Positions 27,948 through 63,935 of a stretch of 64,000 nucleotides of DNA are shown in pieces. The translations under genes and the position numbers were made by a program. The number at the start of each line of letters is the position of its first letter. The stretch's first letter is position 1. The DNA is taken from assembly GCF_054482525.1 (NCBI RefSeq), contig NZ_CM137006.1; one strand, written 5' to 3'. The notes under the pieces are model-generated. The model saw nothing but the letters and a program-made list of their open reading frames with translations. It had not been told where the DNA came from and did no database searches.

Positions 27948-28032
27948 CATTTAAGCTAATGACCCCCACGCTTTTTATTGACCATTTTGCACGCAAACTG
28001 GAAAACCTGGCGTCGTCATCTATTCTTAAAGG

Positions 28033-28135
28033 GCAAGGCAACTAAGCCTGCATTAATGCCAACTTTTAGCGCACGGCTCTCTCCCAAGAGCCATTTCCCT
28101 GGACCGAATACAGGAATCGTGTTCGGTCTCTTTTT
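28033..28135 (+). ncRNA. sdsR: RpoS-dependent small RNA SdsR (RyeB)
   Basis: GCAAGGCAACTAAGCCTGCATTAATGCCAACTTTTAGCGCACGGCTCTCTCCCAAGAGCC… ending in a hairpin plus T5 matches the SdsR sequence as I recall it; it lies between yebY and pphA as in E. coli. Confidence 0.75.
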
Positions 28136-28269
28136 ATCTGTTAAAAGCCAGAAGCATTCCTTTCGCTGACTTTATAGTCAACCATAACACACACTCTACT
28201 GTCTGAGTCCAGCATTTTTTAACATTCCTGTTAAGATTATGTGATCTTTAGCGCGGGAGGAAAATATTG

Positions 28270-38662: not shown

Positions 38663-39544
38663 ATGATGCGAATCGCGCTCTTCCTGCTAACGAACCTGGC
38701 CGTAATGGTCGTTTTCGGGCTGGTACTGAGCCTGACAGGGATACAGTCGAGCAGCGTTCAGGGGCTGATGATCATGGCCTTGCTGTTCGGTTTTGGTGGT
38801 TCCTTCGTTTCGCTTCTGATGTCCAAATGGATGGCATTACGATCTGTTGGCGGGGAAGTGATCGAGCAACCGCGTAACGAAAGGGAACGTTGGCTGGTCA
38901 ATACTGTAGCAACCCAGGCTCGTCAGGCGGGGATCGCTATGCCGCAAGTGGCTATCTACCATGCGCCGGACATCAACGCTTTTGCAACCGGTGCGCGCCG
39001 TGATGCCTCTCTGGTTGCTGTCAGCACCGGTTTGCTGCAGAACATGAGCCCGGATGAAGCCGAGGCGGTAATTGCTCACGAAATCAGCCACATCGCCAAT
39101 GGTGATATGGTCACCATGACGCTGATTCAGGGCGTGGTGAACACCTTCGTTATCTTTATTTCCCGTATTCTGGCGCAGCTTGCCGCGGGTTTTATGGGCG
39201 GAAATCGTGATGAAGGTGAAGAGAGCAACGGCAACCCGCTGATCTACTTTGCGGTTGCAACGGTTCTGGAACTGGTGTTTGGTATTCTGGCGAGCATTAT
39301 CACCATGTGGTTCTCGCGTCATCGTGAATTCCACGCCGATGCGGGTTCAGCAAAACTGGTTGGTCGCGAGAAAATGATTGCTGCATTGCAGCGCCTGAAA
39401 ACCAGCTATGAACCGCAAGAAGCAACCAGCATGATGGCTTTCTGCATTAACGGTAAGTCGAAATCACTCAGTGAGTTGTTCATGACTCACCCGCCGCTGG
39501 ATAAACGTATTGAAGCTCTGCGTACGGGTGAATACCTGAAGTAA
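38663..39544 (+). CDS. htpX: Membrane zinc metalloprotease HtpX
   Basis: 293-aa ORF; HEISH zinc-binding motif; matches HtpX. Confidence 0.93.
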
Positions 39545-39559
39545 TATGAAGTAAATACT

Positions 39560-39591
39560 AAAAAGCGCGTCCTGATCGACGCGCTTTTTTT
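39560..39591 (+). terminator. Intrinsic terminator downstream of htpX
   Basis: GCGCGTC…GACGCGC hairpin followed by a T7 run. Confidence 0.7.
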
Positions 39592-39592
39592 G

Positions 39593-40270
39593 TGCACAGA
39601 AAACCCCCAGCTAGGCTGGGGGTTCCGGAAAGCTTTCAGCTTTGAGCCAGTTATTAAAACCCCTTTTGATTTGTTAAAACACCTTGCGGTCTGGCAACTG
39701 CAAGTGTCAAACAAGAAATCAAAAGGGGGTCCCAATGGGGAACGAAAAGAGCTTAGCGCACACCCGATGGAACTGTAAATATCACATAGTTTTTGCGCTA
39801 AAATACCGAAGACAGGTGTTCTACAGAGAGAAGCGTAGAGCAATAGGCAGTATTTTGAGAAAGCTGTGTGAGTGGAAAAGCGTACGGATTCTGGAAGCTG
39901 AATGCTGTGCAGATCATATCCATATGCTTGTGGAGATCCCGCCCAAAATGAGCGTATCCGGGTTTATGGGATATCTGAAAGGGAAAAGCAGTCTGATGCT
40001 TTACGAGCAGTTTGGTGATTTGAAATTCAAATACAGGAACAGGGAGTTCTGGTGCAGAGGGTACTACGTCGATACAGTGGGTAAGAACACGGCGAAGATA
40101 CAGGATTACATAAAGCACCAGCTTGAAGAGGATAAAATGGGAGAGCAGTTATCGATTCCCTATCCGGGCAGCCCGTTTACGGGCCGTAAGTAACGAAGTT
40201 GGATGCAAATGTCAGATCGTGTGCGCCTGTTAGGGCGCGGCTGGTAAGAGAGCCTTATAGGCGCATTTGA
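39593..40270 (+). mobile_element. IS200 insertion sequence (boundaries approximate)
   Basis: Contains an IS200 tnpA; left end carries the two characteristic stem-loops (CCCCCAGC-TAG-GCTGGGGG at 39604-39622, and an RBS-sequestering helix pairing 39660-39672 with 39716-39729 just before the ATG); IS200 lacks terminal inverted repeats, so the ends are estimated. Confidence 0.8.
39735..40193 (+). CDS. tnpA: IS200 transposase TnpA (HuH Y1 transposase)
   Basis: ATG at 39735 gives MGNEKSLAHTRWNCKYHIVFALKYRRQVFY…HIHMLVEIPPK…RGYYVDTVG…; 152 aa; near-identical to IS200 TnpA as recalled. Confidence 0.9.
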   Translation: MGNEKSLAHTRWNCKYHIVFALKYRRQVFYREKRRAIGSILRKLCEWKSVRILEAECCADHIHMLVEIPPKMSVSGFMGYLKGKSSLMLYEQFGDLKFKYRNREFWCRGYYVDTVGKNTAKIQDYIKHQLEEDKMGEQLSIPYPGSPFTGRK

Positions 40271-40300
40271 AAAACCTCCGGCTATGCCGGAGGATATTTA

Positions 40301-41674
40301 TTATGCCCTGGCTCGTGGCTGAGTGATACGTAAACCACTGACACAGGCAGCAATCACTGCCAGAATAGCCGCAGCCATCAGCGAGACGTGCGTACCATTA
40401 TCACCAAACTGATTTAGCATCAGCGCCACCAGTGCCGCGCCGCTACTCTGACCCAGTAGACGAGCCGTCCCTAACATGCCACTGGCTCCACCGCTACGTT
40501 CGCGAGGCGCGGAGGTAATAATGGTGTGGTTATTGGGTGACTGGAATAAGCCAAATCCAGCGCCACATAAGATCATCGGCCAGATAATATTGATATCCGC
40601 AGGTGACGCGGGCAGCAGAACCAGGGAAAAAAGCCCCGCAGCCATGATGAACAATCCTAAAGCACCCAGCAATCCTGCATGTACGCGTTCAATCAAATAG
40701 CCTGCCAGCGGAGCCATCACCATCGTTGCTAACGGCCACGGTGTCAGAAGTAAACCTGTTTCGACTTCACTACGCCCGAGCACGGTTTGCAGGTAAAAGG
40801 GCAGGGAAACCATTGCCAGCATTTGTGCGCAGAAAGAGCAAACAGATGTGCAAATAGAAAGTGAAAACAGCGGGATACGCAGTAAATCCACCGGTAGCAG
40901 CGGTACGGGAAGAAAAAGCTGGCGGCGAATAAAGAAAATACCAACGACAACCATTACCACCAGTTCCGCACCAATCAATGTCAGCGATTGCCCCTGAGCG
41001 AAACCACTCAACGCAGTGATAAGCAGGCCGAAGGTTAACGCGTTCATCACGGCGCTGGGCAGGTCGAAACGGGGTTTACTGGCGCGAGAACCATTGGGTG
41101 GCAGAAAACGCATCGCCAGAAGCAGGGCGATAATACCCAACGGTACGTTGATTAAAAATAACCATTTCCAGGATGCGATGGAGAGGATTGCTGCAGCAAT
41201 TGTCGGCCCGGCAGCAGAAGAAACGGCAACAATAAACGAGTTTATGCCCATCCCTCGACCCAGAAAACGTTGTGGATAGATCAGGCGGATAAGTGCGGTA
41301 TTAACGCTCATCAACGCTGCACCGCCGAAACCTTGTATGACACGCGCAAGGGTGAGCATTTGCAGCGAATCAGAAAGGGCGCAGAACAGTGAAGACAACA
41401 GAAAAACGACCAGACCGCATTTATAAATACGTCGATAGCCAAACATATCGCCCAGAAACGAAAATGAGAGCAGGGAGATGACAATGGCGATTTGATAGGC
41501 GTTCACTACCCAGATGGAACTGGCCGGTGTGGCATGAAGGTCCGTGGCGATTGTTGGCAAGGCGACGTTGGCGATTGCGCCGTCAAGGACAGCCATCGAA
41601 ATACCAATCACAATGGTTAATATCGCACCGTATCGCTGGGGCAACGGCAGGCCGTCGGCCTGAACTTTTGGCAT
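40301..41674 (-). CDS. yebQ: MFS transporter YebQ
   Basis: ATG (complement 41672-41674) gives MPKVQADGLPLPQRYGAILTIVIGISMAVLDGAIANVALP…; 457 aa, 14-TMS-type MFS. Confidence 0.88.
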   Translation of the reverse strand: MPKVQADGLPLPQRYGAILTIVIGISMAVLDGAIANVALPTIATDLHATPASSIWVVNAYQIAIVISLLSFSFLGDMFGYRRIYKCGLVVFLLSSLFCALSDSLQMLTLARVIQGFGGAALMSVNTALIRLIYPQRFLGRGMGINSFIVAVSSAAGPTIAAAILSIASWKWLFLINVPLGIIALLLAMRFLPPNGSRASKPRFDLPSAVMNALTFGLLITALSGFAQGQSLTLIGAELVVMVVVGIFFIRRQLFLPVPLLPVDLLRIPLFSLSICTSVCSFCAQMLAMVSLPFYLQTVLGRSEVETGLLLTPWPLATMVMAPLAGYLIERVHAGLLGALGLFIMAAGLFSLVLLPASPADINIIWPMILCGAGFGLFQSPNNHTIITSAPRERSGGASGMLGTARLLGQSSGAALVALMLNQFGDNGTHVSLMAAAILAVIAACVSGLRITQPRARA

Positions 41675-43689: not shown

Positions 43690-44358
43690 TCCTTCCTCAA
43701 TCTTGAGTAACCCCGTCGTTGAAGGGTTACTCAATTCATCCTGATTATACGCACTGCCATGGTGCAACTGCTTCAAATTAAAACTCTGGTCTGACTTCAA
43801 ATAATTATCATATTATTTATTTGCGTAACGGGATATCAGAAAAAGATATTTAGCCCATTAATTTATTAGGATGTTTACATCGGATTTATGATTAAGTGTG
43901 GTATTATTTATTAGCGAAACGTTTCTCTCTTGATTTTTTTGCGCATTCATCAATTTTTCTTATTTTAAATTTACAATACCTTTGGCGATTGAGTTCTCTT
44001 TGGGGTGATTGATAGCCGTTAACTGACTGTTTTATGAGAAAAAGTGATATAACTTTTTATTCATTGCATAGCAGAAAATGTGATATTGCACGCACTATGT
44101 AATAACTTCTCCCATTGGCCTGGAACAACTGAACTTATTGAACTATGTTAGAAAATACGTCAGTTTAAGTATCTGCCTGAACTGGCAAGGTTAAGCACAA
44201 TGATATATCGGCGCGTATTCCGTTGCATAAGTGTGCAAAAAAAGTGGAAGACGTATCGAGATTTGTGCGTCTGATCGAGACATGTTTAAAAATGGCTTGC
44301 CATAATTAACGTTGTATGTGATAACAGATTTCGGGTTAAACGAGGTACAGTTCTGTTT

Positions 44359-44502
44359 ATGTGTGGCATTTTCAGTAAAGAAGTCCTGAGTAAACACGTT
44401 GACGTTGAATACCGCTTCTCTGCCGAGCCTTATATTGGTGCCTCATGCAGTAATGTGTCAGTTTTATCTATGTTATGCCTGCGGGCGAAGAAAACAATCT
44501 AA
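44359..44502 (+). CDS. yobF: Small protein YobF (first gene of the yobF-cspC operon)
   Basis: Read directly from DNA: ATG at 44359 gives [47 protein letters not shown], 47 aa; ends 12 bp before cspC. Confidence 0.8.
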
Positions 44503-44514
44503 GGAATTTTTCAA

Positions 44515-44724
44515 ATGGCAAAGATTAAAGGTCAGGTTAAGTGGTTCAACGAGTCTAAAGGTTTTGGCTTCATTACTCCGGCTGATGGCAGCAAAGACGT
44601 GTTCGTACACTTCTCCGCTATCCAGGGTAATGGCTTCAAAACTCTGGCTGAAGGTCAGAACGTTGAGTTCGAAATTCAGGACGGCCAGAAAGGTCCGGCA
44701 GCTGTTAACGTAACAGCTATCTGA
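44515..44724 (+). CDS. cspC: Cold-shock-domain protein CspC
   Basis: 69-aa [72 protein letters not shown]; RNP1/RNP2 motifs. Confidence 0.95.
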
Positions 44725-44770
44725 TCGAATCCACTGATCTGAAGTGTGAATACGCTTCAATCTCGCTATA

Positions 44771-44797
44771 AAGCCTCGCCGAATGCGAGGCTTTTTA
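44771..44797 (+). terminator. Intrinsic terminator downstream of cspC
   Basis: AGCCTCGC-CGAAT-GCGAGGCT hairpin followed by a T5 run. Confidence 0.8.
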
Positions 44798-44889
44798 CTT
44801 TGCTTTATCTTCGCTCCTGGCGTTCGGATATTTGCCCGCCGCGTGATTCGCGTTACACTTGCGGCCTTTAGTATCCTGCCGGAGTTGTC

Positions 44890-62204: not shown

Positions 62205-63890
62205 TTGAAGAAGGTTTGGCTTAACCGTTATCCCGCGGACGTTCCGACGGAGATCAACCCTGACCGTTATCAATCTCTGGTAGATATGTTTGAGCAGTCG
62301 GTCGCGCGCTACGCCGATCAGCCTGCGTTTGTGAATATGGGGGAGGTAATGACCTTCCGCAAGCTGGAAGAACGCAGTCGCGCGTTTGCCGCTTATTTGC
62401 AACAAGGGTTGGGGCTGAAGAAAGGCGATCGCGTTGCGTTGATGATGCCTAACTTATTGCAATATCCGGTGGCGCTGTTTGGCATTTTGCGTGCCGGGAT
62501 GATCGTTGTAAACGTTAACCCGTTGTATACCCCGCGTGAACTTGAGCATCAGCTTAACGATAGCGGCGCATCGGCGATTGTTATCGTGTCTAACTTTGCC
62601 CACACTCTGGAAAAAGTGGTTGATAAAACCGCCGTTCAGCACGTAATTCTGACCCGTATGGGCGATCAGCTATCTACGGCAAAAGGCACGGTAGTCAATT
62701 TCGTTGTTAAATACATCAAGCGTCTGGTGCCGAAATACCATCTGCCAGATGCCATTTCATTTCGTAGCGCCCTGCACAACGGCTACCGGATGCAGTACGT
62801 CAAACCCGAACTGGTGCCGGAAGATTTAGCTTTCCTGCAATACACCGGCGGTACCACTGGTGTGGCGAAAGGCGCGATGCTGACTCACCGCAATATGCTG
62901 GCGAACCTGGAACAGGTTAACGCGACCTATGGTCCGCTGTTGCATCCGGGCAAAGAGCTGGTGGTGACGGCGCTGCCGCTGTATCACATTTTTGCCCTGA
63001 CCATTAACTGCCTGCTGTTTATCGAACTGGGTGGGCAGAACCTGCTTATCACTAACCCGCGCGATATTCCAGGGTTGGTAAAAGAGTTAGCGAAATATCC
63101 GTTTACCGCTATCACTGGCGTTAACACCTTGTTCAATGCGTTGCTGAACAATAAAGAGTTCCAGCAGCTGGATTTCTCCAGTCTGCATCTTTCCGCAGGC
63201 GGAGGGATGCCTGTTCAGCAAGTGGTGGCAGAACGTTGGGTGAAACTGACTGGACAGTATCTGCTGGAAGGTTATGGCCTGACCGAGTGTGCGCCGCTGG
63301 TCAGCGTTAACCCGTATGATATTGATTATCATAGCGGTAGCATCGGTTTGCCGGTGCCATCGACGGAAGCCAAACTGGTGGATGACGACGACAACGAAGT
63401 ACCACCGGGTCAACCGGGTGAGCTTTGTGTCAAAGGACCGCAGGTGATGCTGGGTTACTGGCAGCGTCCGGATGCTACCGATGAAATCATCAAAAATGGC
63501 TGGTTACACACCGGCGACATCGCGGTGATGGATGAAGAAGGATTCCTGCGTATTGTCGATCGCAAAAAAGACATGATTCTGGTTTCCGGTTTTAACGTCT
63601 ATCCCAACGAGATTGAAGATGTCGTCATGCAGCATCCTGGCGTACAGGAAGTCGCGGCTGTTGGCGTACCTTCTGGCTCCAGTGGTGAAGCGGTGAAAAT
63701 CTTCGTAGTGAAAAAAGATCCATCGCTTACCGAAGAGTCACTGGTGACCTTTTGCCGCCGTCAGCTCACGGGCTACAAAGTACCGAAGCTGGTGGAGTTT
63801 CGTGATGAGTTACCGAAATCTAACGTCGGAAAAATTTTGCGACGAGAATTACGTGACGAAGCGCGCGGCAAAGTGGACAATAAAGCCTGA
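62205..63890 (+). CDS. fadD: Long-chain fatty acid-CoA ligase FadD
   Basis: TTG at 62205 gives (M)[32 protein letters not shown]…; 561 aa; AMP-binding motif [14 protein letters not shown]; the track ORF extends upstream in-frame. Confidence 0.93.
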
Positions 63891-63906
63891 GCGTTAAGTC
63901 AGTCGT

Positions 63907-63935
63907 CAGACGCCGGTTAATCCGGCGTTTTTTTT
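63907..63935 (+). terminator. Intrinsic terminator downstream of fadD
   Basis: CGCCGG-TTAATC-CGGCG hairpin followed by a T8 run. Confidence 0.8.

Follow-up and report, generated by a model that had tools for sequence, protein, structure and literature searches.

Members of the IS200 group carry tnpA alone, have no terminal inverted repeats and possess one subterminal hairpin at each end, and the reference element of the group is IS200 of Salmonella enterica, studied by Casadesus and Haniford. The published map of IS200 places a terminator at nts 12–34, a stem-loop at nts 69–138 that blocks 30S binding, and the start of the antisense RNA art200 at nt 153/154, just beyond the third codon (PMC4513863). 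According to work in Salmonella and E. coli, the first hairpin halts approximately 85% of read-in transcription, with further repression by art200 and Hfq (PMC4513863, PMC5435999), and Y125 of the transposase has been named as the catalytic residue, the Y125F mutant of IS200 being catalytically dead (PMC4513863). In the guide model developed for IS608 of Helicobacter pylori a short guide located 5′ of a hairpin pairs with the cleavage site (GL AAAG, CL TTAC; PMC5934647), and insertion of IS200/IS605 elements is biased towards the lagging-strand template (PMC5027513).

The window analysed here (a term that denotes the whole 64-kb stretch of DNA) contains an additional copy of such an element within the gene order prc, htpX, tnpA, yebQ, kdgR, in a region (bases 39400–40500) that is 100% identical to E. 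coli PCN033 and 19KM1776. An earlier note had placed an IS200 copy past the htpX terminator and before the 3′ end of yebQ, starting within a few bp of the terminator T-run; both statements were upheld by alignment with the uninterrupted htpX-yebQ region of K-12 and of 5255 empty genomes. The htpX-yebQ spacer measures 756 bp in the window versus 45 bp in K-12 MG1655, where it reads ...GCGCGTCCTGATCGACGCGCTTTTTTT|ATGCCCTGG..., and the difference of 711 bp is accounted for by sequence lying between the seventh T of the T-run (39591) and ATGCCC (from 40303), so that the start of the element could be sharpened to 39592, immediately after that seventh T. None of the element sequence is present in the 45-bp spacer of IS-free genomes. 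The same 711 bp recur at 98.7–99.9% identity in eight other E. coli copies at unrelated loci (downstream of gndA, tkt, fabF, yfeX, potE and emrB, on one plasmid, and in strain Nissle), with sequences diverging outside the element. We conclude with near certainty that positions 39592–40302 on the + strand (GTGCACAG...ATATTTATT) represent a complete IS200C element of the IS200 group, IS200/IS605 family, inserted in the 45-bp spacer right after the htpX T-run. There is no counter-evidence to the identification as IS200C, and the insertion is an ordinary complete copy of an element that is already known; its value lies in correct annotation, namely the exact ends of the IS, the assignment of a previously ambiguous hairpin to it, and the integrity of both neighbouring genes.

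Several features of the insertion conform to those expected of the group. The empty site TTTTTTT|ATGCCC corresponds to TTTTTTT-IS-ATGCCC in the occupied state, without target-site duplication and without loss of host bases. Since the IS and its left flank both end in TT, placement from the empty site alone is ambiguous by 2 nt; one left flank ends in CT, which favours assigning the left TT to the flank rather than to the IS, in agreement with the IS200/IS605 model, and the ends common to the other E. coli copies and to Y. pestis IS1541 bear on the same point. The element lacks terminal inverted repeats, its ends GTGCACAG... and ...ATATTTATT bearing no inverted relationship to each other, and a hairpin is located subterminally on either side (39602–39624 and 40275–40293). 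A single supported open reading frame, tnpA (39735–40193), was found in the element, with no tnpB or iscB; an antisense reading frame of 106 aa (39798–40118) was without support and was disregarded. RefSeq labels the tnpA product of the window, and those of copies with 99–100% identity, as 'IS200/IS605-like element IS200C family transposase'. The flanking genes htpX (38663–39544, + strand; open reading frame and annotation) and yebQ, which encodes an MFS transporter (40301–41674, – strand; open reading frame, domain search and RefSeq), are both intact despite the insertion; tnpA and htpX are co-directional, and the left end of the IS touches the T-run.

The arrangement of the window copy closely follows that of Salmonella IS200. 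Both have a single tnpA gene encoding 152 aa, and the offsets in the window copy (first hairpin at nts 11–33, stem-loop at nts 69–137, ATG at nt 144) agree with the published ones, at which the hairpin occupies nts 12–34, the stem-loop sequestering the Shine-Dalgarno sequence nts 69–138, and the ATG lies near nt 144. Unlike the E. coli element, for which junction comparison gives a length of 711 bp, Salmonella IS200 has a published length of 707 bp, a comparison made by way of published offsets; the window copy further differs by a P22L change in TnpA. A scan for the 22-mer of the left hairpin across contigs representing one genome per species recovered at least 120 loci, and there was no Salmonella IS200 copy among the matches listed. 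Hosts represented among these matches include Yersinia, Vibrio, Edwardsiella, Brenneria, Budvicia, Oxalobacter, Mailhella and Desulfovibrio, together with Bacillota, Peptococcaceae and Saccharibacteria MAGs. IS1541 of Y. pestis, an orthologue of IS200, shares 87.9% identity with IS200C over 709 aligned nt, matches it exactly in both hairpins and in the terminal ...ATATTTATT, and likewise sits directly after a hairpin and T-run. It is distinguished by its first 8 nt (GTGCCCAG versus GTGCACAG in IS200C), by the N-terminus of its TnpA (MRDEK versus MGNEK), and by a far higher copy number that includes tandem copies. The more distant IS608 shares the Y1/HUH transposase (PDB 2a6m, E = 1e-17, with HUH and Tyr aligned) and subterminal hairpins, and its left cleavage site lies in the flank and its right one at the terminus of the IS, a layout that the window fits. 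In contrast to IS200C, IS608 carries an additional tnpB and uses the target TTAC with the guide AAAG, whereas for IS200C a T-run target (TTTTT/TTATT) and AAAA guides are inferred, and a hairpin that IS608 targets lack lies adjacent in the target.

The claim of the earlier note that the tnpA product is of IS200 type is borne out by the Pfam Y1_Tnp match (PF01797; E = 1.7e-37, 128.7 bits against a cut-off of 23), the Rfam STnc490 match described below, the RefSeq IS200C label and the eight copies elsewhere. The 152-aa Y1/HUH transposase (39735–40193, + strand) possesses residues H61-I-H63 (the HUH motif), Y125 and Q129 that align with PDB entries 2ec2, 2f4f and 2a6m (the last being IS608), from the solved IS608, ISDra2 and Sulfolobus enzymes. 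The window copy, intact at both ends and in its reading frame, differs from the consensus of the nine copies at three positions. One of these, a C-to-T change at 39799, results in Pro22Leu (P22L) within the motif HIVFAPKYR. Pro22 is kept in each of the eight E. coli copies elsewhere and in four further genomes whose htpX-yebQ site holds the IS, the motif HIVFAPKYR was also read in Yersinia, Vibrio, Dickeya, Brenneria and Saccharibacteria MAG copies, and Pro occupies the position equivalent to L22 in the three solved homologues (2ec2, 2f4f and 2a6m). Among the copies examined Leu22 was found only in PCN033 and 19KM1776, from which we infer that P22L arose after insertion.

Because P22L affects a residue that is invariant in all other copies and homologues examined, the transposase of the window copy may be impaired. 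One reading of the locus is that the element is structurally complete but functionally dead, P22L having disabled TnpA and left a fixed relic that could be mobilised only by TnpA supplied in trans from other genomic copies. We give this reading a chance not far below even: it is favoured by the invariance of Pro22 in every other copy and homologue compared, and transposition of IS200 has been reported as very rare in any case (PMC4513863), but the catalytic HUH, Y125 and Q129 and all of the cis elements are intact, and the PCN033 chromosome has ten matching places, so that trans-complementation is possible.

Hairpin 1 at the left end (39602–39624, + strand) comprises a 10-bp stem with a TAG loop, folds as RNA and, on both strands, as DNA, and corresponds to positions 1–23 of Rfam STnc490. 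Its core is formed by CCCCCAGC (39604–39611), TAG and GCTGGGGG (39615–39622), the perfect 8-bp stem noticed earlier, which is present and extends outwards by two further base pairs. By position it corresponds to the bidirectional transcription-blocking hairpin of IS200, published as nts 12–34 (PMC4513863, PMC5435999). Next on the + strand comes UUCCGG, which makes a poor U-tract, and a blocking activity of the hairpin in the window copy would be expected on the strength of the published Salmonella data. Downstream lies the stem-loop of the tnpA 5′UTR (39660–39728, + strand; Rfam and folding), with a perfect 13-bp lower stem formed by 39660–39672 and 39716–39728. The earlier note had paired 39660–39672 with 39716–39729; the helix stands as a perfect 13-bp stem, and its range ends at 39728 because G39729 is unpaired. 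The predicted fold buries the Shine-Dalgarno sequence AAGGGGG (39723–39729), 5 nt upstream of the ATG at 39735, in keeping with the occlusion that had been proposed. For the 169-nt leader the predicted folding energy is –66.4 kcal/mol (z = –5.4), a value equalled by none of 200 shuffles, and a full-length match to Rfam STnc490 (RF01405) at 39602–39725 scores 146.4 bits versus a gathering score of 56, so that both left-end structures can be regarded as intact, as first thought. The sequences of hairpin 1 and of the right hairpin are each unique in the 64-kb window, with approximately zero chance matches expected.

STnc490 matches the strand that is sense for tnpA and the published art200 is antisense, thus the Rfam match supports conservation of the left end and not the strand of an sRNA. 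The region expected to encode art200, mapped from the published coordinates (PMC4513863), occupies 39652–39745 on the – strand, with the published start at IS nt 153/154 corresponding to 39744/39745 in the window. The – strand of this region is predicted to fold into a long stem-loop followed by UUUU (–35.5 kcal/mol, z = –5.3). A simple sigma-70 scan of the element identified no promoter for tnpA or for art200.

As judged from other members of the family, TnpA would cut out the top strand in single-stranded form and insert it elsewhere, binding both subterminal top-strand hairpins. The A-runs located 5′ of the hairpins (39600–39603 and 40270–40274) would guide cleavage to T-rich sites, namely TTTTT in the flank on the left and TTATT at the IS end on the right. 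The AAAA at 39600–39603 (+ strand) is the candidate left guide, proposed by analogy with IS608 from its complementarity to the T-rich flank, and such a guide would fit the T-rich cleavage sites. The element would then circularise as a single strand and enter the lagging-strand template. GC skew on the + strand of the window is positive, and in K-12 htpX lies on the complement strand at 1.91 Mb, in the left replichore; these two observations are consistent with the expected position of the top strand of the IS on the lagging-strand template. Transposase output would be held very low, with hairpin 1 blocking read-in from htpX that the host terminator would already have stopped, the 5′UTR stem-loop hiding the Shine-Dalgarno sequence, and antisense art200 pairing with the same region.

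The target of the insertion is the native intrinsic terminator of htpX (39560–39591, + strand), which is identical in K-12 and positive in a terminator scan. It consists of the stem AAAAAGCGCGTC / GACGCGCTTTTT with a CTGATC loop and a run of seven T at 39585–39591, and the 40-nt flank containing it folds at –17.6 kcal/mol. Weak matches to Rfam STnc420, STnc40 and Atu_C9 in this region (39524–39594) did not reach the gathering score; they overlie the generic hairpin of the htpX terminator and were rejected as sRNA genes. In all nine E. coli copies the left end is positioned directly after the T-run of a hairpin and T-run terminator, with a co-directional gene upstream. We extended the comparison to 125 unique, independent and non-tandem IS200-group left junctions among the matches listed. 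The left flank ends in TT at 124 of the 125, and the last five flank bases are TTTTT at 74, TTATT at 15 and TTCTT at nine of these listed junctions. The 40-nt left flank of the same junctions has a median fold of –18.0 kcal/mol, with 97% at –10 or better; among control T5 sites from the same loci only 12% reach –10 kcal/mol, or 14% when sites outside long open reading frames are considered (Mann-Whitney p = 2e-70). A strict rule requiring a perfect stem detects a hairpin at 98 of the 125 junctions, the misses being imperfect or long-loop hairpins, and we adopted minimum free energy against controls instead. At the 125 junctions among the matches listed, the last G:C pair of the stem is followed by a median of 6 nt (IQR 6–7) before the IS starts, a distribution that is slightly blurred by an IS start that is off by a few nt in approximately 12 flanks of the ...TTGTT|GTG... 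type. The excess of hairpins at junctions over T5 controls indicates that a T-run alone does not account for the pattern and that the hairpin is important, be it for the transposase or for the survival of insertions. In tandem arrays the second Y. pestis copy begins right after the ...TTATT of the first, and a case on an E. coli plasmid has two extra T's.

That IS200-group elements prefer terminators is already known in outline. Terminator-like stem-loops were reportedly observed by Odaert et al. in 1998 at eight of 14 IS1541 sites. A preprint has since described the strongest upstream-terminator signal for IS200/IS605 and read upstream terminators as favouring IS persistence (10.1101/2025.07.22.666184). 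Our searches of literature text returned general terminator enrichment only, and no paper stating base-precise terminator targeting. The junction survey thus provides a quantitative statement of the position of IS200-group elements directly after intrinsic terminators, which helps to predict ends and insertion sites and could inform work on target choice by Y1 transposases.

Two readings of this position were weighed. Our own proposal, which we advance tentatively and as less likely than not, is that IS200-group elements recognise the whole terminator, its hairpin and T-run being single-stranded on the lagging-strand template and mimicking the right end of the elements themselves (hairpin and ATATTTATT), and not just a T-rich tetra- or pentanucleotide by way of the AAAA guide. 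If true, such mimicry would explain the base-precise insertion approximately 6 nt past the stem at 97% of the 125 junctions listed, across several phyla; it would explain head-to-tail tandems, the right end being itself a target; and it would explain why E. coli of divergent backgrounds recurrently carry the insertion at one and the same nucleotide of the htpX terminator. Only this structure-mimicry mechanism would be new, given that the preference for terminators has already been reported. The other reading is that abutment to terminators reflects selection rather than targeting, with insertion at any T-rich site and survival of those copies that are shielded by an upstream terminator and lie outside genes. 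Sites close to terminators are neutral and transcriptionally silent, and the preprint reading that upstream terminators aid IS persistence is in line with selection (10.1101/2025.07.22.666184). We nevertheless regard it as unlikely: among the matches listed a strong hairpin is present at 97% of junctions versus 14% of T5 sites outside long open reading frames in the same loci, the IS starts inside the T-run with a spacing from the stem that scarcely varies (median 6 nt, IQR 6–7) and in constant orientation, and selection for a mere location downstream of a terminator would not yield base-precise spacing.

Among 5426 complete E. coli genomes, 2063 carry IS200C at full length, and as many as 35 matching places, counting full-length and partial ones together, occur in one genome. 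The htpX-yebQ site is contiguous and empty in 5255 of the 5426 (97%) and is occupied by the IS at exactly the same position in 175 genomes; the junctions were identical in the five further occupied genomes examined. Between backgrounds the flanks, one of which is K-12-like, differ by 1.5–2% and the IS by only 0.1–0.4%. The low divergence of the IS against the high divergence of its flanks suggests either that insertion at this nucleotide happened repeatedly or that recombination spread or homogenised the IS. The converse history, in which the IS-bearing state is ancestral and the short K-12-like spacer arose by secondary precise deletion, draws on the ability of IS200/IS605 elements to excise precisely and regenerate an empty site, but it is highly improbable given that 97% of genomes are empty and that a divergence of 0.1–0.4% in the IS versus 1.5–2% in the flanks makes the IS younger than the divergence of the flanks. 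We accordingly treat the window as carrying an insertion into the 45-bp spacer.

The empty site contains one hairpin between the convergent htpX and yebQ genes, bordered by an A-run and, at its opposite side, by a T-run, and in K-12 the TAA stop codon of yebQ overlaps the terminator T-run (TTTTTTT|ATGCCC). As this terminator is directly 3′ of yebQ on the opposite strand, it is probably shared by htpX and yebQ as a bidirectional terminator. The insertion separated yebQ from this structure and left the htpX terminator untouched. The right end of the IS (40270–40302, + strand) consists of AAAAA, the hairpin CCTCCGGC-TAT-GCCGGAGG (40275–40293) and the tail ATATTTATT; it is absent from the empty site and shared with other copies, and would provide a candidate subterminal hairpin for TnpA binding together with the right cleavage site. 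The earlier note had observed the hairpin just downstream of yebQ and left its assignment open. Sequence comparison now assigns it to the right end of the IS and not to a native yebQ terminator: neither the K-12 spacer nor the 5255 contiguous empty sites contain it, and the hairpin and terminal ...ATATTTATT are identical in the eight other E. coli copies and in dozens of Yersinia copies whose right end was read, the hairpin lying 9 nt from the IS end in every full copy with a located right end. Approximately 40 Y. pestis IS1541 copies all terminate in ...GGAGGATATTTATT, followed by any base, and similarity among them stops directly after ...TTATT. In Vibrio and Mailhella copies, in which the right stem is CCACCGGC...GCCGGTGG, pairing is preserved by a compensatory double change. 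The idea that the hairpin is the native yebQ terminator, with the IS ending upstream of it, has only its good intrinsic-terminator appearance to recommend it (it lies 7 nt past the yebQ stop and UUUUU follows on the yebQ strand) and is scarcely credible, having already been refuted by the empty-site alignment and by the same hairpin at the right end of the eight other E. coli and dozens of Y. pestis copies, in which similarity ends 9 nt later.

With the hairpin assigned to the IS, the 3′ end of yebQ takes on a composite character. Two bases of its TAA stop codon (40301–40303) now derive from the terminal TT of the IS, and the yebQ-strand RNA reads UAA, 7 nt, CCUCCGGC-AUA-GCCGGAGG and UUUUU, a structure that folds far better than shuffles. 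The right-end hairpin with its five U residues is predicted to replace the lost yebQ terminator and to form the 3′ end of yebQ. For annotators, it is useful that the terminal two bases of the IS complete the yebQ stop codon and that the 3′ end of yebQ is probably formed by the right-end hairpin and no longer by the terminator near htpX. The right hairpin is terminator-like on both the + and – strands according to the terminator scan, and on the + strand, from its predicted structure, it may also end tnpA transcripts.

The junctions of the 711-bp IS200C copy that lies between htpX and yebQ (39592-40302) are identical to those in five further E. coli genomes that carry the IS at this position (L131-L135). 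Across these loci the flanks of the different backgrounds, one of them K-12-like, diverge by 1.5-2%, whereas the IS itself differs by only 0.1-0.4%. This combination of near-identical elements and identical junctions within diverged flanks suggests either recurrent insertion at one nucleotide or recombinational spread or homogenisation of the element. The copy in the window also carries a C-to-T substitution at 39799 in tnpA (39735-40193, + strand) that is private and changes codon 22 (P22L) within the TnpA motif HIVFAPKYR, which is otherwise invariant; Leu22 was found only in PCN033 and 19KM1776, and four other genomes whose IS occupies this site keep Pro22. The C-terminus of YebQ (40312) reads PRARA in the window and PRSRA in K-12, a polymorphism of the flanking sequence that has no connection with the IS.

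Head-to-tail tandem copies of IS200 or its Yersinia orthologue IS1541 were identified on the E. coli plasmid pNMBU-W05E18_02 (L006, 861-1011) and at four Y. pestis loci (L085, L086, L088 and L102). In the Yersinia tandems the second copy begins immediately 3′ of the ...ATATTTATT of the first, with one additional T before the second copy in L102, and in the E. coli plasmid two additional T's separate the two copies. The right end of IS200/IS1541 therefore itself serves as a target. Many other E. coli plasmids, including those of O157:H7, hold only fragments of IS200C (H57-H61, H64-H67, H74-H80), covering either nt 1-337, or nt 571-711 at approximately 92% identity, and in some cases broken by IS1; they are decayed copies.

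Among the matches listed, the exact 22-nt left hairpin of IS200 is present far beyond the Enterobacteriaceae, in MAGs and genomes (loci L011-L082), mostly at contig ends. The hosts, given for MAGs as binned and thus subject to possible binning errors, include Bacillota, Peptococcaceae, Saccharibacteria, Elusimicrobiaceae, Mailhella/Desulfovibrio, Oxalobacter and Vibrio. The hairpin is invariant in these matches, whereas the IS begins with 8-12 nt that vary by lineage (GTGAAACG, GGTTAAAA, GTATAGAG and others).

The Rfam model STnc490 (RF01405) matches 39602-39725 on the + strand, in the sense of tnpA, and takes in the upstream terminator hairpin, whereas the published art200/STnc490 sRNA is a 90-nt antisense RNA; the orientation and extent of the model seem not to match the characterised sRNA. 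The Rfam model of the Yersinia sRNA Ysr202 gave a sub-threshold match at 40270-40378 on the − strand (27 bits, where the gathering score is 315), with the alignment confined to the model ends and the interior skipped. The 3′ part of this match is the IS right-end hairpin (40275-40293) and its U-run, the remainder lying in the 3′ end of yebQ, which suggests that Ysr202 has the right end of IS1541 as its terminus.

No tRNA genes were found in the entire 64-kb window. Its RNA features elsewhere include the convergent, overlapping sRNA pair SraC/RyeA (−) and SdsR/RyeB (+) at 27995-28139, both far above their Rfam gathering scores, an Rfam cspA-thermoregulator match (137.6 bits) at 44339-44799 (+) that presumably represents a cspA paralogue's leader, and the sroD sRNA at 63849-63934 (+, 115 bits).
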